A stretch of DNA of 64,000 nucleotides from a candidate division FCPU426 bacterium (GTDB taxonomy: Bacteria; Oederibacteriota; JAAXVQ01; JAUVAV01), in contig DAOWGI010000027.1 of NCBI GenBank assembly GCA_030637655.1, positions 40,329 to 104,328 on the forward strand, read 5' to 3'. Positions 1 to 53,450 of this stretch are shown here, piece after piece (position 1 is the stretch's first letter; every line of letters starts with the position of its first letter). The translations under genes and the position numbers were made by a program. The notes beneath the pieces are model-generated. The model saw only the letters and a program-made list of their open reading frames with translations. It was not told where the DNA came from and made no database searches.

Positions 1-67
1 TTATCTGCGTCTATCTGCGTTCATCGGCGGCTAATTTTGGTTCCATTAGTTCACTGACATGTTACGC
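1..67. repeat. Partial copy, truncated by the window edge, of a palindromic about 140-bp repeat family P. It ends with cattagttcactgacatgttac.
   Basis: Near-identical to 8441-8494 (tatcggcgttcatcggcgg.taatttt..ttccattagttcactgacat.ttac). The inverted arm of the same sequence is at 8371-8400 and at 31365-31395. Confidence 0.5.
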
Positions 68-1419: not shown

Positions 1420-2574
1420 CTACTTTCCTTTCTGTGCTTGGGCCGGTTGCACATTCACCAGCCGGCTTTGCATATAGCGTTCACTATCTTTTTTAGCTTG
1501 CGCAGTAATCACCAACAAGTTTGCGCCGCGTGTCCAAGCCGGCCGGAAAGTCATTTCAATGCGGCCGAGTTGCTTGACATACTTTACCAAAACAGGTGAT
1601 TGACCGCGCCGTACTTGAATGCTGGATACGAGAAGTCGTTTGACAAATTCCGGATCCAAATCCACATAGGCCCGGGTCAAGGGACCGGCAACCAAAACTC
1701 CAAGCGGGGGCTGCCACACTACTACCGGCAGCTCTTGAGTATATAATATTTTCCGGAATGTTGTCTCACGCATTCCGCGTAAAATCATAGTTCTTTTCAG
1801 CGCTTGTCTTAAGGTACGTTGGCTATTGGTGCCCGGATTCACGGTGAAACAAAATTTATAGCCGGCCTCGGTCGCGACCTCCGCGACAGTTTTATCCCAA
1901 AGTCCATAAGGATATGCCAGCGCCATCACTTCCCCTTTAGACCAGGCCTGTAATTTTTTCCGGGAACCATGCAATTCTTTCTCCAGGCGGATACGATGTG
2001 CTGCCGCCGATTCACCGGAACGCAATTTGTTCAGCTTAGGATGCGTGGCCGAATGGGATCCAACAGCAAAACCTTGCGCTTGTAATTCCAGCAAATCCCG
2101 GCGAGACAAACCCAGTCGCGAACCTATAAAATCCGTATAAATAAACAAGGTCGCCGGGTAGCCGTACTTTCGTAAAACCGGTTCAGCCTGCTTACGAAAA
2201 TCTTTGTACCCGTCATCCACAGTAATTAACATCGCTTTTTTCGGCAAAGGTGTGGTGCCCTGCCAACCGGCCTGCAATTGGTCCAACGTGATTGGTACAA
2301 ATCCTTCTTCCGTAATAATCTCCAATTGCCGGGTAAATTCTTGAACGCCTACAGAATAAGCATCTTTGGCGCCGTACTTGCCAAAGCGGTGATAGCACAA
2401 AACCGGAACATACTGCTGCCGGGCCTGCCCCGTAGACGCTGATATACTTTCCCGGTTACCGGCGGATTCCATCGGCGATTGGGCGGCCAGAACGGGGCTG
2501 CACAGCAGCCAGGGTATCAGCATGACCCCCGGCAATATTCGCCAAAAATGTGTTGTGTTATTATTTGTTCTCAT
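1420..2574 (-). CDS. Secreted polysaccharide deacetylase family protein (NodB homology)
   Basis: 384 aa. N-terminal signal peptide. NodB motif ITVDDGYKD. Sits inside the pyr operon between pyrD and pyrF. Confidence 0.7.
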   Translation of the reverse strand: MRTNNNTTHFWRILPGVMLIPWLLCSPVLAAQSPMESAGNRESISASTGQARQQYVPVLCYHRFGKYGAKDAYSVGVQEFTRQLEIITEEGFVPITLDQLQAGWQGTTPLPKKAMLITVDDGYKDFRKQAEPVLRKYGYPATLFIYTDFIGSRLGLSRRDLLELQAQGFAVGSHSATHPKLNKLRSGESAAAHRIRLEKELHGSRKKLQAWSKGEVMALAYPYGLWDKTVAEVATEAGYKFCFTVNPGTNSQRTLRQALKRTMILRGMRETTFRKILYTQELPVVVWQPPLGVLVAGPLTRAYVDLDPEFVKRLLVSSIQVRRGQSPVLVKYVKQLGRIEMTFRPAWTRGANLLVITAQAKKDSERYMQSRLVNVQPAQAQKGK

Positions 2575-3194
2575 AACTTCCCGTCCCTATCCTTTCCTGC
2601 CATAACCGCGACAGTGGGTGTTGAGTCCCGGGGCCAAAGCATACGACTTAGCCTGTACAACCCCCAGCCCAAAGTAATTCCAATACCATACCCGACTAAC
2701 ACATCAGCCGGATAGTGCCCGCCGGAATAAATAGTTCCTAAACCAATCAACAAAGCAAATATGACAGCCCAGATTCGCGTTCTGGCATCCAGAGAACCGG
2801 CCACCATAGCCAGCGCGGCGGCACTGGCAGCGTGAGTCGAAGGAAAAGAGAGCGAAACACTGAATAAATCATTGAGCGGCACACACAAATGAACATCCGA
2901 AAGGATCATAAACGGCCTCGGCCTGTTAAAAAACAACTTTAATAGTTGATTATGGAGCAGATTGGAAACCAGCACCGCTGTTCCTCCCCACAGCCCAAGC
3001 GCTAAGGCTTTGCGCCAGCCGGCCCACACACCATAGCCGGCCATGACTACCAGCAAAAAGAGTAAAATCAATTGGTCGCGTGCTAAGAGATACGTAAGAT
3101 CAGCCAACACACGAACATACAACGTATCATTGATAAAACGAAAAAGGGCAACATCTATATGAACCATTTTTTCTACAAAAATCTGAAAACTCAC
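2571..3194 (-). CDS. PAP2-family membrane phosphatase (undecaprenyl-diphosphatase or phosphatidate phosphatase-like)
   Basis: 207 aa with multiple TM segments. PAP2 motif SFPSTHAA. The ORF overlaps both neighbouring genes by 4 nt. Confidence 0.6.
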   Translation of the reverse strand: MSFQIFVEKMVHIDVALFRFINDTLYVRVLADLTYLLARDQLILLFLLVVMAGYGVWAGWRKALALGLWGGTAVLVSNLLHNQLLKLFFNRPRPFMILSDVHLCVPLNDLFSVSLSFPSTHAASAAALAMVAGSLDARTRIWAVIFALLIGLGTIYSGGHYPADVLVGYGIGITLGWGLYRLSRMLWPRDSTPTVAVMAGKDRDGKL

Positions 3195-4114
3195 AATTGT
3201 GCTGCTCCAATGATTTTATTCAAGGACGCCATACGATGTTGTTTGAGATAAGCCGTGATGCCGGACACAATGGTCTCGGCGATTTTCGGATCCCGAAACG
3301 TGCCGGTTCCGATCTGAATAGCGCCGGCTCCGGCCAATATAAATTCCAGCGCGTCCTCCGCGGTTTCAATACCGCCCACACCAACGATTGGAATTGATAC
3401 CGCTTGCTTTACTTTATAAACCAGATGAATGGCCACCGGCTTAACCGCCGGCCCGGACAACCCACCAATAGTATTGGCCAATATAGGCCTCTGTTTTTCT
3501 ACATCAATGCGCATGCCGATCAAGGTATTCATTACAGTCAAGGCGTCGGCGCCACTCTCTTCCGCCGCACGGGCCAGAGTTACCATATCCGTAACATTAG
3601 GCGAAAGTTTTACCCACAACGGCAAATGCGTTTTTCGACGTACAGCTTTAACCAATCGCGACAACACGACCGGATCCCGGCCAAACTCAATTCCACCAGC
3701 CTGTACATTAGGACAAGATACATTAAGCTCAATTCCTGCCAGCGGTTTCCGGTCCGCCAATCGTGTCACCACTTCCAAATATTCCGTTGGGGTTGATCCG
3801 GCTACATTCGCAATAACCGCACAGGACAATTTTTTCAAAGCCGGTAGTTTATCGTGACAAAAAGTGTCCACCCCTACATTAGCCAACCCAATGGCATTCA
3901 GCATACCGGCCGCGCACTCCACCACGCGCGGCATGGCGTTTCCCTCTCGCGGCTGCAGGGTAATACTCTTGGCCACCAACCCGCCAAGAGCTTGAAAGCC
4001 AACCAAGCCTGAGAGTTCTGTGCCGTAGCCACAGGTTCCGGAAGCCAAAAGCACAGGGTTTCGCAACTGCACGCCGCCAATATTTATTTTTAACGATGGT
4101 TGTTTTGCCCTCAT
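3191..4114 (-). CDS. pyrD: Dihydroorotate dehydrogenase catalytic subunit (class 1B)
   Basis: 307 aa. N-terminal GVQLRNPVLLASGTCGYG, typical of PyrD. Adjacent to pyrK. Confidence 0.85.
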   Translation of the reverse strand: MRAKQPSLKINIGGVQLRNPVLLASGTCGYGTELSGLVGFQALGGLVAKSITLQPREGNAMPRVVECAAGMLNAIGLANVGVDTFCHDKLPALKKLSCAVIANVAGSTPTEYLEVVTRLADRKPLAGIELNVSCPNVQAGGIEFGRDPVVLSRLVKAVRRKTHLPLWVKLSPNVTDMVTLARAAEESGADALTVMNTLIGMRIDVEKQRPILANTIGGLSGPAVKPVAIHLVYKVKQAVSIPIVGVGGIETAEDALEFILAGAGAIQIGTGTFRDPKIAETIVSGITAYLKQHRMASLNKIIGAAQL

Positions 4115-4127
4115 TTTATTCCCTTTC

Positions 4128-4341
4128 GTAACTACTCAGGTCTGCAAAAAGCGGGTCACTTTGGTCTTTTTTTAAGCGTGGCAGCGGTAACTGCAAAGAT
4201 GTGGTTTAGAAAAACCCATCCCCCTATTGCCCGTTATCAGCCTAGACCTTGGTTTTCCGCTTTGCCATGCTGGAAAAAAGACCAAAGTGACCTGCCCGAC
4301 GTGAATATTTGAATACTTTTTTTACACTCCTGAGTAGTTAC
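4128..4341. repeat. Copy 1 of a 214-bp hairpin-forming repeat (family R1) with terminal inverted repeats gtaactactcagg / cctgagtagttac
   Basis: About 88% identical to 5118-5331. Internal long-range inverted repeat ggtcactttggtcttttt (4156-4174) / aaaaaagaccaaagtgacc (4282-4300). The right terminus contains the pyrK stop codon TAA (4338-4340). Confidence 0.7.
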
Positions 4342-5093
4342 TCCCATTCAACCTCAAAGGCATTAAATACCGGCCCGTCTTTGCATACCCGCTGATAGGT
4401 TCCAGCTACGCGAACCACACACCCATTGCACACACCCATTCCACATGCCATAACTTCTTCCAATGAAACTTCCGTTGGAATCGCGTGCTTACGGGCAATC
4501 TGAGTTACAGCCCGTAACATCGGATTAGGTCCTGCGGCGGCAATTATTACCTTATGCTTCAGTTGACTAAGCCGCTCTTCCAATACTTGCGTGACCAATC
4601 CCCGGGCGCCAAAACTTCCATCTTCGGTCGCGCAAGCCAAGGTGGCTCCCGCCTGCCTTAGCTCTCGGCGTAACAGCAAGTCTTTTTTACAACGACCGCC
4701 CATCAGCACTTCCGCCGAACGACCTTGCGCTTTCACTTTATCCAAGAGAAACAGTAAGGGCGCTATGCCAAAACCACCGCCAACCAAAAGCCTGGGGGTT
4801 TTTCCGGATAGTGTAAATCCGTTGCCAAACGGACCGGTGATATCAATATCATCTCCCAGGCTTTGCTGAGCAAGAAGTTGCGTGCCCCTGCCCACGGTTT
4901 TGACGAGCAGCTCAATAGTTGTGGCCGTGGCGCGACAAATCGAAAAAGGACGGCGCCAAAACGGCGATTGCTCTCCTGCCACTTTTATCTCCACAAATTG
5001 CCCGGGTTTGGCTGCGCGAGCAATGCTCGGAGCGTTAAACACCAAATAATGGTACACACCTAAACGCTTATGTTTTATTAAAACAGCTTTCAT
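4338..5093 (-). CDS. pyrK: Dihydroorotate dehydrogenase electron-transfer subunit
   Basis: 251 aa. FAD/NAD-binding fold and C-terminal 2Fe-2S cysteine cluster (CGMGVCNGC). Confidence 0.8.
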   Translation of the reverse strand: MKAVLIKHKRLGVYHYLVFNAPSIARAAKPGQFVEIKVAGEQSPFWRRPFSICRATATTIELLVKTVGRGTQLLAQQSLGDDIDITGPFGNGFTLSGKTPRLLVGGGFGIAPLLFLLDKVKAQGRSAEVLMGGRCKKDLLLRRELRQAGATLACATEDGSFGARGLVTQVLEERLSQLKHKVIIAAAGPNPMLRAVTQIARKHAIPTEVSLEEVMACGMGVCNGCVVRVAGTYQRVCKDGPVFNAFEVEWE

Positions 5094-5117
5094 GTTACTT
5101 CCTTATACTTCTTTTTT

Positions 5118-5331
5118 GTAACTACTCAGGTCTGCAAGGAGCAGGGCGCTTTGGTTTTTTTTCAAGCGTGGCAGCGGTAACTGTGTAGATGTGGTTTAGA
5201 AAAGCATATCCCCCTATTGCCCGTTAGCAGCCTGGACCTTGGTTTTCCGCTTTGCAATGCTTGAAAAAAGACCAAAGTGACCTGCCAGGTGTGAATATTT
5301 GAATACTTTTTTTACCCACCTGGGTAGTTAC
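5118..5331. repeat. Copy 2 of repeat family R1, with TIRs gtaactactcagg / cctgggtagttac
   Basis: Same architecture and length as copy 1. The right terminus contains the pyrC stop codon TAA (5328-5330). Confidence 0.7.
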
Positions 5332-6635
5332 TCTTTTTTGGTTGGCGTTTTTTCTCGTTGATAGACTATTTTCCCGGCAACCAGGGTTGCTGCTACTTCT
5401 CCTTTTACCTTCCAACCTTCAAACGGTGTGTTGTACGACTGGCTCTGGAACTGTGCTGCTTGAATGGTGCGTTCCGCTTTGTCGGCAAAAACCACCACAT
5501 CCGCATCCGCATTAACTGATAACGTGCCTTTGGGGATTTTGAGAATCTTGGCTGGTTGATAACTCAAACAATTGATAGCATCCAATAGCGACACGCCTTG
5601 ACCTTCCACCAACGCTGTGAGCGTTAAGGACAACGAGGTCTCCAAACCACAGATGCCCGGCGCAGACAGCGCAAATTCCCTTTCTTTCTCACGACGTGAG
5701 TGCGGCGCGTGATCCGTGGCAATCGCATCAAGCGTCCCGTCTTTCAATCCAGCCAGCAAAGCCTGCTGATCCGATTGTTCGGAAATAGGCGGATTCACCC
5801 GGATATTGGTATCATAGTCGCTTAAACATTCATCCGTCAATACCAAGTAATGCGGAGCTGTCTCCGCCGTCACCGGCACACCACGTGCTTTAGCTTCCCG
5901 GATAATACGCACCGCGCCGGCAGTGGAAACGTGCGGTATGTGAATCCGGCTTCCGATCTCCTCGGCCAATAATACATCACGCGCGATCATCACTTCCATG
6001 GCAGAACGTGGAATTCCTGCCAAGCCTAAGACGGTTGCCATAAACCCGGCATGCGCAACCCCTTTACCGGACAGCGCTTTTTCCTCAGCATGATTAATAA
6101 TCAACAGGTCCAACATACCGGCATACTGCATGGCACTGCGCATCAAGACCGGCGAGCTTACCGGATCGCCGTCATCAGAAACCGCAATTACGCCGGCGGC
6201 TTTGAGTTCACCCATCTCTGTTAGTTTGTTTCCTTCACGGTTGCGGGTGATACATGCCACCGGAAAAACATTCACCACACCCTGACTTTTTGCTTTGGAA
6301 AGAATTAGTTCCACCATGGCCAGATTATCAATGGGCGGATCGGTATTGGGCATGCACGCCACACTGGTAATACCACCAGCCGCGGCTGCCCGGGTGCCGG
6401 AGGCAATAGTTTCTTTATATTCCGCTCCCGGCTCACGTAAATGCACATGCATGTCCACCAAACCGGGAGCAACCACTTTGCCTGTGGCCTCTATGGTCTG
6501 GTCTTGCTTCCCGGTTTTTATTGCGTTTAGTTTGGTAAGCGCGGTAATTTTTCCTTTTTCCATCCAGAGATCACCTACCGCATCGTGCCCGGAAGCCGGA
6601 TCCAGAATCCTACCGCCTTTAATCACTGTTCTCAT
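5328..6635 (-). CDS. pyrC: Dihydroorotase
   Basis: Metal-binding DMHVHLREPG motif. Start taken at MRTVIKGG (ATG 6635, GGAGGTG RBS) rather than at the upstream ORF-track start. Confidence 0.85.
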   Translation of the reverse strand: MRTVIKGGRILDPASGHDAVGDLWMEKGKITALTKLNAIKTGKQDQTIEATGKVVAPGLVDMHVHLREPGAEYKETIASGTRAAAAGGITSVACMPNTDPPIDNLAMVELILSKAKSQGVVNVFPVACITRNREGNKLTEMGELKAAGVIAVSDDGDPVSSPVLMRSAMQYAGMLDLLIINHAEEKALSGKGVAHAGFMATVLGLAGIPRSAMEVMIARDVLLAEEIGSRIHIPHVSTAGAVRIIREAKARGVPVTAETAPHYLVLTDECLSDYDTNIRVNPPISEQSDQQALLAGLKDGTLDAIATDHAPHSRREKEREFALSAPGICGLETSLSLTLTALVEGQGVSLLDAINCLSYQPAKILKIPKGTLSVNADADVVVFADKAERTIQAAQFQSQSYNTPFEGWKVKGEVAATLVAGKIVYQREKTPTKKE

Positions 6636-7557
6636 CGGACTCACCTCCAGATAACAAATATAGAACGGCCATTCGCACAGCCACACCATTGGTCACCTGA
6701 TCCAATATAACCGCATTCGGACCATCGGCTACACGGGGTGATATTTCAATGCCGCGATTCATGGGACCTGGATGCATAATCAGAACATCCGGTTTGGCCA
6801 GTTTTAAACGACGCGCGTTCACACCATACAAGTGCGCGTATTCTCTGGCACTGGGAAAGCAATGCCCGTCTTGCCGTTCCAGCTGAATACGCAGAATATT
6901 TATTACATCCGCGCCGGCAATCGCTTCTTCCAGGCGATAATAGACTTCCACTCCCAATTTGGCAAAACTTTTAGGAATCAAGGTGGCCGGACCGACGATC
7001 CGGACTTTAGCTCCAAGTTTGAGCAATCCTCTAATGTTGGAGCGTGCCACGCGTGAATGCGTGATATCCCCCACCAAGGTCACAATCAAATCCGTAAATG
7101 ATTTTTTATATTCACGAATGGTGTACAGGTCCAGCAAACCCTGCGTGGGATGCGCGTGCGTTCCATCCCCGGCGTTAATCACAGAGGCTTTGCTGTTTTT
7201 GGCAACCAGTCCAACCGCGCCCGAACAGGAATGCCGCATGATAATCGTATGCACATTCATGGCTTCTATATTACTTACGGTGTCCAGCAAACATTCACCC
7301 TTCACCAGCGATGACGCGGAAGCGGTAAAATTAACCACATCCGCCGAAAGCCGCTTGGCCGCTAATTCAAAAGAAGTCCGTGTGCGCGTTGATGGTTCAA
7401 AAAATAGATTCACTACTGTTTTCCCGCGTAAGGCCGGCACTTTCTTGATGGGACGCTGTCCCACTTCTTTAAAGGACTTGGCGGTATCCAATATTTCTAT
7501 AATTTCTTCCACGCTTAGCGCATGCAGGGTTAATAAGTCCTTGCTTTTCAGTCCCAA
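6619..7557 (-). CDS. pyrB: Aspartate carbamoyltransferase catalytic subunit
   Basis: STRTRTSFE carbamoyl-phosphate motif. The true start is probably TTG at 7557 (AAGGGGG RBS), giving MGLKSKDLLTLHALS and about 312 aa. The ORF-track start at 7653 would overlap pyrR by 80 nt. Confidence 0.8.
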   Translation of the reverse strand: MGLKSKDLLTLHALSVEEIIEILDTAKSFKEVGQRPIKKVPALRGKTVVNLFFEPSTRTRTSFELAAKRLSADVVNFTASASSLVKGECLLDTVSNIEAMNVHTIIMRHSCSGAVGLVAKNSKASVINAGDGTHAHPTQGLLDLYTIREYKKSFTDLIVTLVGDITHSRVARSNIRGLLKLGAKVRIVGPATLIPKSFAKLGVEVYYRLEEAIAGADVINILRIQLERQDGHCFPSAREYAHLYGVNARRLKLAKPDVLIMHPGPMNRGIEISPRVADGPNAVILDQVTNGVAVRMAVLYLLSGGESDENSD

Positions 7558-7573: not shown

Positions 7574-8131
7574 TCATTCTTTGCTCCCTGGAGCTTGTAA
7601 CTGTATGACGTCCGGTTCCGGGCCTTCCTGTAATTGCACCACAACTTTTTCACTTCGGGCCGTAGGCAAATTCTTGCCTACAAAATCAGCATGAATTGGC
7701 AACTCACGATGTCCTCGATCCACCATCACCGCCAACTGAATTTGTTGCGGCCGTCCGTAATTATTGAGTTCATCCATGGCAGCTCTAATAGTTCGGCCGG
7801 TAAACAACACGTCATCGACCAGGACCACGCGTTTCGCTTCCAAATCAAAAGGTAAATGTGTGGGTTGCTTACTCGCTTGTCGTTTCGCATTTCTATGCGC
7901 GTCATCGCGATGAAACGTGATATCCAAGGCGCCGACCGGAGGTGTTGTGCCTTCAATGGCACCAATGTGTTTAGCAATACGTTTGGCAATTATATCCCCG
8001 CGTTTTAGAATTCCGATCAAAACCATGTTTTCCACTCCGTGATTGCGTTCACAAATTTCATGCGCAATACGAGACACTGCCCGTCTTATGGTTTCAGCAT
8101 CCATGACTTGCTTGGTTTTTATTTCCGACAT
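7574..8131 (-). CDS. pyrR: Bifunctional pyr operon regulator / uracil phosphoribosyltransferase PyrR
   Basis: PRTase motif VLVDDVLFTGRT. Start ATG 8131 (MSEIKTKQV) preceded by a GGAGGG RBS. First gene of the operon. Confidence 0.85.
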   Translation of the reverse strand: MSEIKTKQVMDAETIRRAVSRIAHEICERNHGVENMVLIGILKRGDIIAKRIAKHIGAIEGTTPPVGALDITFHRDDAHRNAKRQASKQPTHLPFDLEAKRVVLVDDVLFTGRTIRAAMDELNNYGRPQQIQLAVMVDRGHRELPIHADFVGKNLPTARSEKVVVQLQEGPEPDVIQLQAPGSKE

Positions 8132-8145
8132 GGTTTCCCTCCGTT

Positions 8146-8260
8146 GGCCAAAAAAAAACCTCCCCTGTGTCTTGCCAAATGGGAGGTTTTCCAGCTGTAG
8201 CATTAGTCTAAAACAGCACCCTTTCCAGTCTCGCAGAACCAGTTTAAAGGATTGTTTTTT
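8146..8260 (-). promoter_or_regulatory. pyr leader with candidate PyrR-dependent transcription attenuator (terminator hairpin plus U-run directly upstream of pyrR)
   Basis: On the minus strand the hairpin aacctcccatttggcaagacacaggggaggtt (8183-8152) is followed by nine U (8154-8146). Upstream leader contains CUGCGAGACUGGAAAGG, resembling a PyrR binding loop. Confidence 0.45.
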
Positions 8261-8342: not shown

Positions 8343-8494
8343 CCTAATCCGGATAAATCGGAACCAAAATTAGCCGCCGATAAACGCAGATAGACGCAGA
8401 TATTTATAGCTTAAGAGATAAAATAATTTTAATCTATATTTATCGGCGTTCATCGGCGGTTAATTTTCTTTTCATTAGTTCACTGACATATTAC
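8343..8494. repeat. Full copy of palindromic repeat family P (MITE-like)
   Basis: Left arm cctaatccggataaatcggaaccaaaattagccgccgataaacgcagata pairs with right arm tatcggcgttcatcggcggttaatttt. Ends with cattagttcactgacatattac. Related copies at 1-67 and 31365-31488. Confidence 0.6.
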
Positions 8495-8564
8495 GGAGAA
8501 AAGATAATATAATGGCGCAGAGGCGGTTGTCTTTGGTTTGTTATTTTATGGCCCTAAATAAAAA

Positions 8565-8596
8565 CCGGGGGAACAAAATTGTTCCCCCGCTTTTTA
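8565..8596. terminator. Rho-independent terminator (ccgggggaacaaaattgttcccccg plus T-run)
   Basis: Perfect 10-bp stem with a T-tract on either strand. Lies just downstream of the small K-rich ORF on the minus strand. Confidence 0.5.
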
Positions 8597-8626
8597 GAAC
8601 TTATAATTCACCTGCTGGTGCATAAA

Positions 8627-8737
8627 TTATTTCTTTTTCTTTGCGACTTTCTTCTTCACGACTTTCTTCTTCACCACTTTTTTCGCCGCGACTTTCTTCT
8701 TCACCACTTTCTTCGCCGCTTTCTTTTTCACTGGCAT
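8627..8737 (-). CDS. 36-aa lysine-rich small protein (MPVKKKAAKKVVKKKVAAKKVVKKKVVKKKVAKKKK), not in the ORF track
   Basis: ATG at 8737 is preceded by a perfect AGGAGGTGA Shine-Dalgarno with 6-nt spacing. Terminator immediately downstream. Composed of KKV(V/A) repeats. Confidence 0.5.
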   Translation of the reverse strand: MPVKKKAAKKVVKKKVAAKKVVKKKVVKKKVAKKKK

Positions 8738-25213: not shown

Positions 25214-25439
25214 CGGTAACATGTCAGTCATGCGTTTTTTTGTTTATCATCCATGAATGCAACCCCACCCTGTCATCCCCGAATGCTCTTATCGGGGATA
25301 TGGTTTAAAAAACCAGATTCCTGCCGAATGCGTCCCTATATATCTTTTCCGGTCGGGGCCGATTAAACCCTCGGGAATGACAACCTTTGTTAACCGCAAT
25401 TCGCTGACATGTTACTACTAAATGCTCAAGCTCCTAGGG
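25214..25439. mobile_element. MITE-like repeat, family 3 copy A, with TIRs ggtaacatgtcag / ctgacatgttac plus a flank ctaaatgctcaagctcctagg
   Basis: The internal 160 bp (gtcatccccgaatgc..tatcggggata..ccgattaaaccctcgggaatgac) is near-identical to 27557-27710 and, in reverse orientation, to 29780-29895. The batA stop codon lies in the right flank. Confidence 0.65.
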
Positions 25440-31254: not shown

Positions 31255-31364
31255 TTTTTACACCATGTCCGTTTTGAAGCTTTTGAGGAGATATTCCTGT
31301 TTTCTACATTTATAAATATAGCCTCTTAGGCACTTACAAATGAAATTCTTTCAAAAATGGAAAG

Positions 31365-31488
31365 AAAATTAACCGCCGATGAACGCAAATAAACGCAGAT
31401 ATTTATAGCCTAATGGATAAAAAAGATTTTAATTTGCGTGTATCCGCGTGTATCGGCGGCTAATTTTGGTTCCGGTTTATCCGGGTTA
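31365..31488. repeat. Copy of palindromic repeat family P (variant lacking the ctgacatgttac terminus)
   Basis: aaaattaaccgccgatgaacgcaaataaacgcagatatttatag .. gcgtgtatcggcggctaattttggttccggtttatccgggttagg. Arms match 8343-8400 and 1-40. Confidence 0.6.
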
Positions 31489-32949
31489 GGGACGCAAAAA
31501 ATTAATGGTTTTTAATCGTTCCAACAAAGATCCTTTGGTGCTTCCCTCTCCCAGGGATAAATCCGAAACCACAACTTCTCCAATAATTATTTTACGATCT
31601 TTTTTTGGTTTGTCCAACACCCGATACGCCCAAATATCATGTATCGCGTAGTATATATCTCCTTCGCTCCCAAGATAAAGCATGATATGTCCGGGAAATT
31701 GCAGCAGCACCGGATGCTTGATCTTGTTCAGTTTTGCTTGTCTTTGCCGCGTATTGTTCTTCCTGGCAAACGTATACCGGCCGCTTCCTACCCTGGCTTG
31801 GGACGACGAATTGCGAGGCAAAATAAATCCCATGGTGGCATACACATCCATTATCACTTGTGAGCAATCCCGGTACTCATTCATCCCGCCCCAAGCGTAT
31901 GGTGTGTGTAGGAGTTTGAACGCCTGTTGACATATATTACGTGGCGTATATGCCAAGTACCCTTGGTGCACATCCGCTGCTCGGGAAATATATATTTTCC
32001 GACGAATAATATCACCGTTCTTCTTTTTTTTCGGAAATCCGACAACATAATATGCTTTCGTTCTGCCCAGCAAGGGACACACGGTTCCCATATAGAGTTT
32101 CTCCGCCACTATGGTGGTGCCGGGCGCTTCAACTGCTTCCACCTTATGTCCGGTAATCACAAGAAAACGCTTAGGCTTGATATACCGCTCCAATTTTTTT
32201 GGATTGCAGTCTTCTAAAATATCACTCCGTTTTATCCAGCCACGACAATACGCGGTGACCACAAATACCCAGGCTTGATCACGACTGCTGTGCATAATGG
32301 CCAGGGGTTGCAGAGCCCTGACTGAGGAGACTTGTACAATGTCAAAATTTACATTCCAACGCTTTCCGGTGACTAAAAGCTCAGTCGGATAATATCGCAC
32401 ATTGGTTCTTCGCAGGGTGAGTCCATATCGAACCGGATTGTTTTCCTGAATGGCGTTCAGATTCAGGTTGTCATCCAAAGCGGCAAATGTTTTCTGACAA
32501 ATCGGCTCTCCTCCACTATCCCACCGCTGTTTGCGTTTGATCCGTTCGGTCTCGTCTTTGAGATAAGTATATAGTGTATACCCTTCCAATATACCCGGGC
32601 TATAGGCTGAAGGACGTTCCAAATTCCATTCCCACTCCGGATTGTCCTCTCCGGGTCGATCGACCTCCACATAGCGATAATCCCATAATTTATCCGTAAA
32701 CACATTGGTCAACAAACCCCGCGTGATATTTTTGCGATTGATTTTCCTGATTTGCTTTTTTGTGAGCAATAAGTGATCGCGAAAAATATATTTGTTTATC
32801 CAATATTCGGGCTGATCCATTTCCAAAGTACAATTAAACAACGGCAGTGTTGCCCGCTCTTGATAAGGCGGGCCTGCTGGAATCTGCAGCGAAGCGCAAC
32901 CAGACAGATTGACGAGCAAAAAGCAGAGGATAATATATTTTCGCAACAC
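31486..32949 (-). CDS. Secreted or lipoprotein NlpC/P60 (C40) family peptidase, paralog
   Basis: Signal peptide with cysteine (LSGCAS). Catalytic motifs RDCSQV and GHIMLYLG. Shares the C-terminal tail VSDLSLGEGS.KGSL with the upstream paralog. Confidence 0.6.
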   Translation of the reverse strand: MLRKYIILCFLLVNLSGCASLQIPAGPPYQERATLPLFNCTLEMDQPEYWINKYIFRDHLLLTKKQIRKINRKNITRGLLTNVFTDKLWDYRYVEVDRPGEDNPEWEWNLERPSAYSPGILEGYTLYTYLKDETERIKRKQRWDSGGEPICQKTFAALDDNLNLNAIQENNPVRYGLTLRRTNVRYYPTELLVTGKRWNVNFDIVQVSSVRALQPLAIMHSSRDQAWVFVVTAYCRGWIKRSDILEDCNPKKLERYIKPKRFLVITGHKVEAVEAPGTTIVAEKLYMGTVCPLLGRTKAYYVVGFPKKKKNGDIIRRKIYISRAADVHQGYLAYTPRNICQQAFKLLHTPYAWGGMNEYRDCSQVIMDVYATMGFILPRNSSSQARVGSGRYTFARKNNTRQRQAKLNKIKHPVLLQFPGHIMLYLGSEGDIYYAIHDIWAYRVLDKPKKDRKIIIGEVVVSDLSLGEGSTKGSLLERLKTINFLRP

Positions 32950-40222: not shown

Positions 40223-40344
40223 AAATCCCCTTTAAAAATAACAAAGCAGGCCGCGAAAACTTCTTCACAGCCTGCACTTAATGCTTAAGGTGAAATGATA
40301 CGCACTAACCTAAACCCTGTCAAATGGAAAAACGAGAATTTTGG

Positions 40345-40575
40345 AACATGTCAGTGATGGTACTGGGAGCCTTGTCGAATTTTACTCTTTCTCCCCCTTT
40401 TGTAAAGGGGGCAGGGGGGATTTAATCAATAAAACGCCCACTTTTATAATAAAATCCCCCTCAATCCCCCTTTTTAAAAAGGGGGAAGAGTGTTTAAAAT
40501 CCGCTTTTGTGCCTAAATCCAACAGGCTCCTAGCAAACCTGAAAAACCTTTCTAGTACCATCACTGATATGTTAC
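40345..40575. mobile_element. 231-bp MITE with 22-bp TIRs aacatgtcagtgatggtactgg / agtaccatcactgatatgttac and internal G/C-tract palindromes
   Basis: Near-perfect TIRs sharing the catgtcagtga core with families P and 3. Internal cccccttttgtaaagggggcaggggggatt and aatccccctttttaaaaagggggaag hairpins. ORF-track ORFs 40341-40595 lie wholly inside it and are judged spurious. Confidence 0.7.
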
Positions 40576-52289: not shown

Positions 52290-53450
52290 CTAGCTTTCCA
52301 AATCCTTTATTTTCTGCACGGCATGCACGATATCATCCGCCAGATGGGGTGGAGCATACCGAAGAAAAAGTTTATAAGCTTCTACTGCTTTACTAAGCCG
52401 GCCGGATTTCTCGCAGCTTAAAGCCTTATCAAAATAGATTCGCGCTGAATCCGGTTGGATCTGCAAAGCTTTATTAAAATCTTCGATTGCCCGAATATAA
52501 TCGCCTTTCCTGTAATAAATCACTCCGCGGTCGTGGTAGGCTTCACCATTATTTGGCTGTATTTCCAATACTTTGTTAAAGTCTCGAATCGCCTGTTCAT
52601 AGTTATTTTGGGCGCAATAAGCAATTCCCCGATTTCGGTATGCGGTTTTATCCAAAGTATTTATTTTCAAGACATGATTGAAGTCAACAATGGCATCTTC
52701 ATATTGTCTGTTTTTGAGATAAGCTATTCCGCGATGCTTGCAGGCATCCGCATCTTCCGGCTTTAGATCCAAACTTTGGTTGAAATCATCAACTGCTTTA
52801 GCGCATTTGTTTTTAAACAGATAAGCTAATCCCCTATGGTAATAAGCGTCAAAATATTTCGTATTGAATTTCAGCGCTTGATTAAATTCGGCAATTGCTT
52901 TATCGAACGAGGCGCCGGCTAAATAAGTTAATCCCCGGCAAAAATAGGCTTCAGCGTTATTGGGCTTGATTTTTAAAGCCCTGTTAAAGTCGTCAAGCGC
53001 CGGCGGGTATTTGCCTAGATTGTAATAGACTTTACCCCTCAGCACATAAGCTGAAAAATATTCAGGGTCAATTTCCAATGCTTTAGTTAGATTTTGATCC
53101 GCCTGGAAAAAATCACATTTCAGCGAATAAATCAGTCCTAAATTGTGATAAATGCCGGGGCTTTTGGATTGAATTTCCAATACTTTTTTTAACTCGGCAA
53201 TGGCCCGGTCATACTTCTTATTATTCACATAGACTGTCACGCGGTTGTAGCGGTCTTTTATCGCCTTTTGCTCTTTTTCGGCAGCTTTATTTAACTTGGA
53301 AACTGCTAGACCAGTACCATCTTGCCTGACATTGAATTTTGCATTTAAATTTTCAGGAATTGCATAACTTTTGAAACCTAATATGACTGCCATAATAAAA
53401 AGCACTGTTTTAATCAGTGTAAATTTTATTATATTCATCAGAATCAACAA
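52290..53450 (-). CDS. Secreted TPR-repeat protein (about 9 TPR units)
   Basis: Signal-peptide or TM N-terminus. Regular 34-aa TPR repeats (AxxYxxxGxxYxxxxxYxxAIxDFNKAL). Confidence 0.7.
   Translation of the reverse strand: MLILMNIIKFTLIKTVLFIMAVILGFKSYAIPENLNAKFNVRQDGTGLAVSKLNKAAEKEQKAIKDRYNRVTVYVNNKKYDRAIAELKKVLEIQSKSPGIYHNLGLIYSLKCDFFQADQNLTKALEIDPEYFSAYVLRGKVYYNLGKYPPALDDFNRALKIKPNNAEAYFCRGLTYLAGASFDKAIAEFNQALKFNTKYFDAYYHRGLAYLFKNKCAKAVDDFNQSLDLKPEDADACKHRGIAYLKNRQYEDAIVDFNHVLKINTLDKTAYRNRGIAYCAQNNYEQAIRDFNKVLEIQPNNGEAYHDRGVIYYRKGDYIRAIEDFNKALQIQPDSARIYFDKALSCEKSGRLSKAVEAYKLFLRYAPPHLADDIVHAVQKIKDLES

Follow-up and report, generated by a model that had tools for sequence, protein, structure and literature searches.

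Two related repeats within a pyr operon

The 64-kb stretch of contig DAOWGI010000027.1 analysed here, which we call the window, carries on its minus strand a biosynthetic operon whose genes run in the order pyrR, pyrB, pyrC, pyrK, pyrD, a PAP2 phosphatase gene, a polysaccharide deacetylase gene, pyrF and pyrE. Gene identities were taken from NCBIfam models and from the gene calls on a near-identical metagenome scaffold. Two copies of a 214-bp repeat, R1, lie in the middle of this operon, one (R1-B) between pyrC and pyrK and the other (R1-A) between pyrK and pyrD (Table 1). The copies have the same orientation, lie 990 bp apart and align without a single gap, with 23 substitutions between them (89% identity; BLAST E 1e-74); beyond these two the window has no further R1-like sequence. 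The terminal inverted repeat (TIR) of R1 consists of 13 perfect nucleotides, which in R1-A extend to 23 nt at 87%, and within each copy lies a 33-nt internal inverted repeat with a perfect core of about 19 bp. When the 13-mer GTAACTACTCAGG was matched to the window with up to two mismatches, it was found at four places, which are exactly the four R1 ends; 0.62 matches are expected, and none of 100 shuffled sequences reached four.

R1 shows no sign of coding capacity. Stop codons interrupt all six frames, the open reading frames (ORFs) that overlap it have no NCBIfam match, and no protein family or homologue was matched; likewise, its concatenated six-frame translation, compared with 5.8 billion proteins to catch spurious ORFs on further R1 copies, returned no match. 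Rfam gave nothing at the gathering score, the sole sub-threshold match to R1 being a generic hairpin that resembles an animal miRNA model (27 bits versus a required 80). The locus is also present, with both R1 copies, in a metagenome from cold-seep sediment (Site F, South China Sea; PRJNA707313), at 99.93% identity over 9,761 nt and with zero differences inside R1. The closest named relatives of the PyrK protein are those of candidate division FCPU426 and Candidatus Firestonebacteria, at 55–60% identity.

Table 1. Positions in the window of the R1 copies, their parts and flanks, and the pyr genes around them (L-numbers are our handles for loci outside the window).
Feature	Position	Strand	Sequence	Remarks
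R1 copy A (R1-A)	4128-4341			214 bp, very probable MITE (see text), between pyrK and pyrD; boundaries from TIRs and flanking 8-bp duplication
R1 copy B (R1-B)	5118-5331			214 bp, very probable MITE, between pyrC and pyrK; ends defined by TIRs and perfect 8-bp duplication
Left TIR of R1-A	4128-4150	+	GTAACTACTCAGGTCTGCAAAAA	first 21 nt identical to ends of full-length IS66-type elements
Right TIR of R1-A	4319-4341	-		holds pyrK stop TAA, 4338-4340 (minus strand)
Left TIR of R1-B	5118-5137	+	GTAACTACTCAGGTCTGCAA	
Right TIR of R1-B	5319-5331	-	GTAACTACCCAGG	1 mismatch; holds pyrC stop TAA, 5328-5330 (minus strand)
Internal inverted repeat of R1-A	4151-4295			arms 4151-4183 and 4263-4295, 33 nt each, 88% complementary; 79-nt centre
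Internal inverted repeat of R1-B	5141-5285			arms 5141-5173 and 5253-5285, 33 nt each, 85% complementary
Target-site duplication of R1-A, left	4120-4127		TCCCTTTC	sense strand GAAAGGGA, pyrD Shine-Dalgarno region
Target-site duplication of R1-A, right	4342-4349		TCCCATTC	sense strand GAATGGGA, last pyrK codons E-W-E
Target-site duplication of R1-B, left	5110-5117		TCTTTTTT	
Target-site duplication of R1-B, right	5332-5339		TCTTTTTT	sense strand AAAAAAGA, last pyrC codons
Relic of pre-insertion pyrK stop TAA	4116-4118	-		downstream of R1-A, 1 nt before pyrD ATG (4114-4112); from comparison with L013 and L015
Relic of pre-insertion pyrC stop TAA	5103-5105	-		downstream of R1-B, 9 nt before pyrK ATG (5093-5091)
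pyrD (dihydroorotate dehydrogenase B, catalytic subunit)	3191-4114	-		NF005574, E 6.6e-122
pyrK (electron-transfer subunit)	4338-5093	-		NF000799 and related models; stop codon from R1-A
pyrC (dihydroorotase)	5328-6689	-		TIGR00857, 426 bits; stop codon from R1-B; gene call in L010 is 435 aa, start then near 6635
pyrR	7574-8131	-		first gene of the pyr operon

Both R1-A and R1-B lie between direct repeats of 8 bp, each copy between a pair of its own. The two flanks of R1-B are identical (8/8), and those of R1-A agree at seven of eight positions, the single mismatch lying in the non-coding copy; the duplications of the two copies differ from each other and have no target motif in common. The closest relatives of the PyrK protein (72% and 64% identity, both from JGI metagenomes) are encoded in the same gene order without R1. 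Of these R1-free loci, L013 has spacers of 9 nt between pyrC and pyrK and of 1 nt between pyrK and pyrD, while in L015 the first spacer is 62 nt and the second pair of genes overlaps by 4 nt. Deleting R1 together with one copy of the duplication from the window sequence gave reconstructed empty sites that end in ...GAATGGGAATAAAATGAG and ...TAAGGAAGTAACATGAAAGCTGTTTTA and are colinear with L015 (GAGTGGGGAATAAAATGAG) and L013 (TAAGGATAGACAATGAAAGCTGTTTTA). The reconstructed pyrK-pyrD junction reads ...GAA TGG GAA TAA A ATG, with PyrK ending in ...EWE-stop and a 1-nt spacer before pyrD; the reconstructed pyrC-pyrK junction reads ...AAA AAA GAA GTA TAA GGAAGTAAC ATG, with PyrC ending in ...KKEV-stop and a spacer of 9 nt. 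At the latter junction L013 likewise has TAA, 9 nt and then ATGAAAGCTGTTTTA, and its PyrK has the same C-terminus (...FEVEWE-stop) as the protein encoded in the window.

The position of the two insertions relative to the reading frame is the same. Both split the terminal GAA (Glu) codon of the upstream gene after its 'GA', and the G-TAA with which R1 continues turns this into GAG (Glu) followed by an immediate in-frame stop; the stop codons of pyrK and pyrC are the TAA within the terminal G-TAA-C of the respective R1 copies. As a result PyrK is unchanged (...EWE-stop) and PyrC is a single valine shorter than its ancestral form (...KKE-stop in place of ...KKEV-stop), whereas in the other two insertion frames the upstream protein would gain 5 or 34 residues. 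The ribosome-binding sites (RBSs) downstream of the insertions still adjoin their start codons; that of pyrD is GAAAGGGA, which lies within the duplication, and that of pyrK is AAGGAAG. Because the end of R1 supplies a stop codon and the next gene keeps its RBS and start, two insertions could persist within a biosynthetic operon; their persistence is a matter of survivorship, and nothing points to design. The original prediction, which was made from the letters of the window, had already described the two 214-bp copies with their TIRs and an internal repeat of some 19 bp (here extended to 33 nt), had assigned the stop codons of pyrK and pyrC to the R1 termini and had proposed that the whole element can fold into a long stem. 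All of this holds.

Insertion sequences with the same ends

The terminal 20-mer of R1 was scanned against 596 Gb of species-representative genomes, a search space in which about one match is expected by chance, and three loci only were found (L003, L004 and L005). In L004 the 20-mer stands at both sides of a 1,842-bp element (2321-4162) with a 476-aa ORF that matches PF03050 (DDE_Tnp_IS66) at E 1.2e-40; in L003 and L005 the R1 terminus and the sequence next to it lie near the ends of their contigs. Scanning metagenomes with the R1 terminus added four loci, three of them with a bounded element of about 1.84 kb and one (L009) with a single end; of these elements, that in L007 is flanked by a perfect 8-bp duplication (AGCACGGC) and that in L006 by a duplication of 8–9 bp. 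The left end of R1 is the same as the ends of these insertion sequences (ISs) for 20–21 nt (21 in R1-A) and looks similar by eye to about nt 32, and the right end has its first 13 nt in common with them. Within L004 2402-3977, the transposase ORF has 476 aa compared with 522 aa in close homologues, and a 65-aa ORF (3780-3977) overlaps its upstream end; this copy may have suffered a frameshift or may use a different start.

Looking further afield, single-ORF elements of the IS66 family have GTAACTAYTCAG-type ends in common across five phyla, mostly together with perfect 8-bp duplications, and the GTAACTAYTCAG core is present in elements of Bacteroidota, Bacillota and Cyanobacteriota as well as in the published ISDge4 of Deinococcus. 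Perfect duplications flank an element on a Segatella copri plasmid (terminus GTAACTACTCAGC, duplication GAAGCGTT), ISGst1 of Geobacillus (GTAACTATTCAGCC, AAAAGAAC), an element on an Acaryochloris plasmid (GTTACTGCCCAGG, CTTCATTC) and the metagenomic elements of L020 (GTAACTATTCAGG, TCGAGTTC) and L022 (termini GTAACTATTCAGG and GTAACTACTCAGG, duplication AGATATAT); the flanks of a Bacillus cereus plasmid element, whose terminus is again GTAACTACTCAGC, agree at six of eight positions only. Full-length relatives with perfect 8-bp duplications are found in L007, L016, L018, L019, L020 and L022. Three environmental relatives have the core TIR and lack the extended end of R1, and more distant relatives have only 12–13 terminal nucleotides in common with R1.

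These features can be placed beside what has been published for the family. The TIRs of IS66 elements are 20–30 bp long and start with GTAA, and the elements are flanked by 8-bp direct repeats (PMC11946415). ISDge4 of Deinococcus geothermalis, a member of the ISBst12 group of the IS66 family, encodes a single transposase of 449 aa and has TIRs GTGACTACTCAGCA and GTAACTGCTCAGCA with an 8-bp direct repeat (PMC12898284). Out of 13 positions, R1 has 11 in common with either of these two TIRs, and 12 when the variant bases of both ends are merged. The terminal GTAACTACTCAG(G/C) is common to R1 and the ISBst12 group (ISBst12, ISGst1, ISDge4), and R1 and these elements alike duplicate 8 bp of target, with no consensus among the targets. 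R1 is unlike them in being 214 bp long, in encoding nothing and in having an interior that is unrelated beyond about 32 nt.

Because of the matching ends, the 8-bp duplications and the lack of any protein or Rfam match, we regard R1 as very probably a non-autonomous transposable element, specifically a miniature inverted-repeat transposable element (MITE), with the TIRs of the single-ORF, ISBst12-like IS66 family. R1 is short and non-coding, has TIRs, carries duplications specific to each copy and is missing from the orthologous sites, all as expected of a MITE; of its copies, two were seen within 64 kb. Of what is expected of the IS66/ISBst12 elements, the start with GTAA, GTAACTAYTCAG and the 8-bp duplication were found. 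The original prediction had likewise suggested a MITE; the TIRs and the absence of coding capacity support this, as do the duplications, which it had missed. In the scenario that we favour, a DDE transposase of the IS66 family, encoded elsewhere, would have recognised the GTAACTACTCAGG... ends of R1, and R1 would have inserted twice into the pyrR-pyrB-pyrC-pyrK-pyrD operon with 8 bp of target duplicated each time. Insertion after the 'GA' of a final GAA codon would then have allowed the G-TAA of R1 to complete GAG and a stop, and the duplicated or adjacent sequence would have kept the RBS and start of the next gene directly after the element. We infer that R1 was mobilised in trans, that it is co-transcribed with the operon and that its insertions were nearly neutral.

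It is informative to compare R1 with the MITEs known from other bacteria. Like bacterial MITEs in general, for example the Correia elements of Neisseria, RUP, MITEAba12 and MITEPsy, it is short, encodes nothing, carries TIRs and target duplications, can form a long hairpin and lies between the genes of an operon, with which it is probably co-transcribed. It differs in its parent IS family and in that only two copies are documented. A shallow search of the literature found no described MITE derived from IS66/ISBst12 elements.

Several observations weigh against the view that R1 is a MITE with IS66-type ends. When the interior of R1 is compared with the full-length ISs by BLAST, only the terminal 20–21 nt match and there is nothing beyond about nt 32; that the interior derive from a parent IS by internal deletion is, however, not required of MITEs. 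The elements whose 20–21-nt ends are identical to those of R1 come from metagenome-assembled genomes (MAGs) of Bacteroidales (Muribaculaceae, Porphyromonadaceae), whereas the host of R1 belongs to another lineage, and related transposase matches carry the names Bacteroides, Prevotella and Rikenellaceae. Furthermore, only two copies of R1 are known, with none more in genome, JGI-metagenome, viral and plasmid collections, all of them without the source genome; these were scanned with the exact pattern of the terminal 20-mer (genomes and metagenomes), with a TIR-pair pattern (viruses) and by BLAST (plasmids), and the 20-mer scans of genomes and metagenomes returned only full-length ISs in other taxa. 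The 64-kb window contains no IS66-type transposase according to its ORF list and a scan of ORFs, and a homologue search with the L004 transposase gave Bacteroidales-type proteins only, none tied to the host of R1. Finally, the substitutions between the two copies have a strong strand asymmetry (see below) that a purely passive model does not predict. The distribution of the matching ends suggests, as far as sequence comparison goes, that the IS66-type clade with R1-like ends is wider than it looks or has been horizontally transferred. The original prediction had named, as what would speak against it, a total of two copies together with the absence of covariation and of a transposase with matching ends; two copies and no covariation are what we found, whereas elements that bear a transposase and have matching ends do exist, in other organisms. 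Breaks of metagenome contigs at R1 were considered as a sign of many genomic copies and rejected, the two local copies being sufficient to cause them.

Folding, substitutions and the alternatives to a passive element

The predicted folds of both copies are much more stable than those of shuffled sequence. In the sense of the pyr mRNA the predicted folding energy is -92.4 kcal/mol for R1-A (z -9.1) and -67.0 kcal/mol for R1-B (z -4.0), and on the + strand it is -92.8 and -86.8 kcal/mol, respectively. This potential for a long hairpin follows from the TIRs and the internal inverted repeat of R1 and is not in itself evidence of RNA function. The differences between the copies were then mapped onto the predicted pairs, an analysis of two sequences only with structures derived from R1-A. 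No compensatory change was found between the R1 copies, in that no pair is altered on both sides. Read in the sense of the pyr mRNA, the copies differ at 15 pairs, each of which is broken in one copy. Read on the + strand, antisense to the operon, they differ at 16 pairs; 11 of these, all altered by transitions, still pair by means of G·U, and the remaining five, all transversions, are broken. The G·U pair is in R1-B in nine cases and in R1-A in two. Stems are no more conserved than loops, with 16 changes in 154 nt as compared with 7 in about 60 nt. If Watson-Crick pairs are taken as ancestral, the transitions within the stems are without exception A>G or C>T when read on the + strand. Under a 50:50 null, the two-sided binomial probability of 11 out of 11 is about 0.001, and it is 0.016 when the count is restricted to the seven transitions of the outer and inner stems. 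The original prediction had claimed that changes between the copies partly preserve pairing and that a change from a to g in one TIR keeps a G-U pair in RNA. Both claims are correct for a transcript of the + strand (11/16 pairs) and incorrect for the pyr mRNA, in which none of the 15 pairs is preserved and the TIR change makes a C·A mismatch.

The strand asymmetry is most simply ascribed to a strand-biased, deamination-like mutation spectrum, since the three transitions at unpaired positions run in the same direction, R1-B having G or T on the + strand. From GC skew and gene orientation, the minus strand is both the leading and the non-template strand; because a bias that arose in situ would be expected on the other strand, its origin may lie in source copies at other places. 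Other inverted repeats across the window have G·T and A·C mismatches in a ratio of 2 to 2, with too few informative sites to speak for or against such a bias. We consider it unlikely that the one-sided substitutions reflect selection on one strand, be it that an antisense RNA or a fold of single-stranded DNA was kept, or that an intercistronic mRNA hairpin was weakened while the DNA repeat stayed recognisable. If this were nonetheless true, R1 would be a MITE that was co-opted, or tamed, within an essential operon.

It is also worth considering whether R1 serves, or has come to serve, a function as RNA within the pyr mRNA, be it as a stabiliser like the repetitive extragenic palindromic (REP) sequences and bacterial interspersed mosaic elements (BIMEs), as a processing site for RNase III or as a selected intercistronic regulator. 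The very stable sense folds (-92.4, z -9.1, and -67, z -4.0) would be in keeping with such a role, as would the position of both copies between cistrons in the same orientation and the prediction of no sense-strand terminator-like site, which makes co-transcription plausible. A simple promoter and terminator scan predicted neither a sigma-70-like promoter in R1 nor, on its sense strand, a terminator-like site; the only two matches that it gave inside R1 are weak hairpins of the + strand at 4139-4157 and 5312-5327. The sense strand of R1-A does have a run of five U residues after the inner stem, which, judged from its sequence, could cause some polarity. Against a functional mRNA element stand the 15 of 15 variable sense pairs that are broken in one copy without any double-sided change, divergence that is about equal in stems and loops, relatives that run the operon without R1 (at junctions of 1–9 nt), the lack of any Rfam match beyond a chance sub-threshold hairpin, and the fact that the inverted repeats of a transposon fully account for the hairpin. 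We therefore judge this role quite improbable, and the REP/BIME-like stabiliser or processing element that the original prediction had envisaged is not borne out by these same findings of broken pairs, absent covariation, R1-free relatives and no Rfam family. Both REP/BIME sequences and R1 are palindromic intergenic repeats inside operons that can form mRNA hairpins; REPs, however, are imperfect palindromes of about 35–40 nt that occur in clusters, lack target duplications and are linked to REP-associated tyrosine (RAYT; Y1) transposases. Membership of this class was rejected for R1, a 214-bp unit with TIRs and with 8-bp duplications of the type made by DDE transposons, and no RAYT-like protein is encoded among the ORFs scanned in the window.

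Very improbable, in our estimate, is a function of the + strand, either as an antisense RNA or as folded single-stranded DNA in which pairing has been selected through G·U wobble. The 11 of 16 variable pairs kept by G·U, as against 0 of 15 on the other strand, the more stable fold of R1-B on this strand (-86.8 versus -67.0 in the sense direction) and the two-sided probability of about 0.001 for 11 of 11 under a 50:50 null are what such selection would produce. The same direction of the three unpaired transitions nonetheless points to mutational bias (A>G, C>T) rather than to structure, conservation is no higher in stems than in loops, five pair-breaking transversions are tolerated, no + strand promoter-like site is directed into R1, and the comparison comprises two sequences only, with structures from R1-A. 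The probability is smaller by far, indeed close to nil, that R1 derives from elements of the IS200/IS605 type, such as the palindrome-associated transposable elements (PATEs), moved by a Y1 HUH transposase that inserts next to TTAC. The R1 end GTTAC does resemble the TTAC target of some IS200/IS605 members, and this TTAC/GTAA at the boundary is the sole likeness. IS200/IS605 elements and PATEs are known to lack terminal inverted repeats, to leave their target unduplicated and to use a fixed target, a tetranucleotide or pentanucleotide such as TTAC, next to one end; R1, with TIRs of 13–23 nt and 8-bp duplications, departs from them in all three respects. The GTAAC lies inside the TIR and is common to IS66-family elements with PF03050 transposases, and the flanks have no common motif (TCTTTTTT and TCCCATTC for R1; AGCACGGC, GAAGCGTT and others for the related ISs). 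The original prediction was right to read the recurring GTAAC ends as a sign of a common type of mobilising enzyme; its comparison with IS200/IS605-like TTAC targeting fails because TTAC/GTAA is the terminus of R1 itself while the flanks differ from copy to copy, and an IS66-family DDE transposase takes the place of that enzyme. We regard as exceedingly improbable, too, that not two transpositions but a local duplication of a segment, or recombination inside the operon, produced the two copies. They share their orientation, occupy analogous positions and are separated by 990 bp; but their similarity ends exactly at the ends of the TIRs, each has a distinct 8-bp duplication, the intervening pyrK is single-copy and each reconstructed empty site fits the native junction of the relatives.

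Other repeats of the window and what R1 means for the operon

R1 is not the only repeat of this kind in the window. A second MITE family, probably also of the IS66 type, is represented just downstream of pyrE by window positions 1-65, next to which one copy of a duplication stands at 66-73; the element is complete in L010 (9897-9697; about 201 bp), with the TIR GTAACATGTCAGTGA (GTAA(C/T)ATGTCAGTGAA) and a perfect 8-bp duplication, GCGGTCCG. At 40343-40575 lies a 233-bp element with 22-nt TIRs (GGAACATGTCAGTGATGGTACT and GTAACATATCAGTGATGGTACT, 20 of 22 positions matching) whose core is that of the second MITE family; its flanks, AGAATTTT and GGAATATT, agree at six of eight positions and look like a decayed 8-bp duplication. 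Further copies or fragments of repeats with GTAACATGTCAG ends lie at 25216-25415, 27538-~27720, 8355-8495 and 31354-31495, some without one end and none with a clear duplication. As the fragment at 8355-8495 is upstream of the pyr leader, the pyr locus has received at least three insertions of the MITE type, with a fourth just downstream of pyrE.

Directly upstream of pyrR, positions 8150-8254 on the minus strand give a sub-threshold match to the PyrR-binding-site RNA (RF00515; 44.1 bits versus a gathering score of 54, E 7e-4), which fits a PyrR-controlled attenuator of the pyr operon. Between the cyclophilin gene and the pyr leader, a perfect GC-rich 10-bp hairpin at 8566-8589 with T and A runs on both sides looks like a bidirectional terminator, and at 8619-8723 a 15-nt unit (TTCTTCTTCACSACT-like) is repeated in tandem about five times. 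Elsewhere, repeats with a period of 102 nt at 52456-53219, within a 386-aa ORF (52290-53450, minus strand), look like degenerate protein repeats and by their period resemble tetratricopeptide repeats (TPRs).

Taken for what it is, R1 is a neatly placed mobile element of an ordinary kind; there is no evidence that it is a dedicated regulator at the RNA level, and it opens no new mechanism. For annotation, elements of this kind account for the odd 'spacers' of about 220 nt and for the breaks of metagenome contigs in the pyr operon. R1 documents IS66/ISBst12-type MITEs in a poorly known lineage, that of a cold-seep bacterium whose PyrK is closest to those of FCPU426 and Firestonebacteria, and the identity of the R1 ends with those of an IS clade found so far in Bacteroidales MAGs hints that this clade is more widely distributed. 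R1 is also a clean natural case of a transposon whose own end spares the operon into which it inserts: with GTAA at their termini, IS66-type elements bring along a stop codon for one of three frames, on either strand, and the 8-bp duplication carries the ribosome-binding site of the next gene across the insertion.

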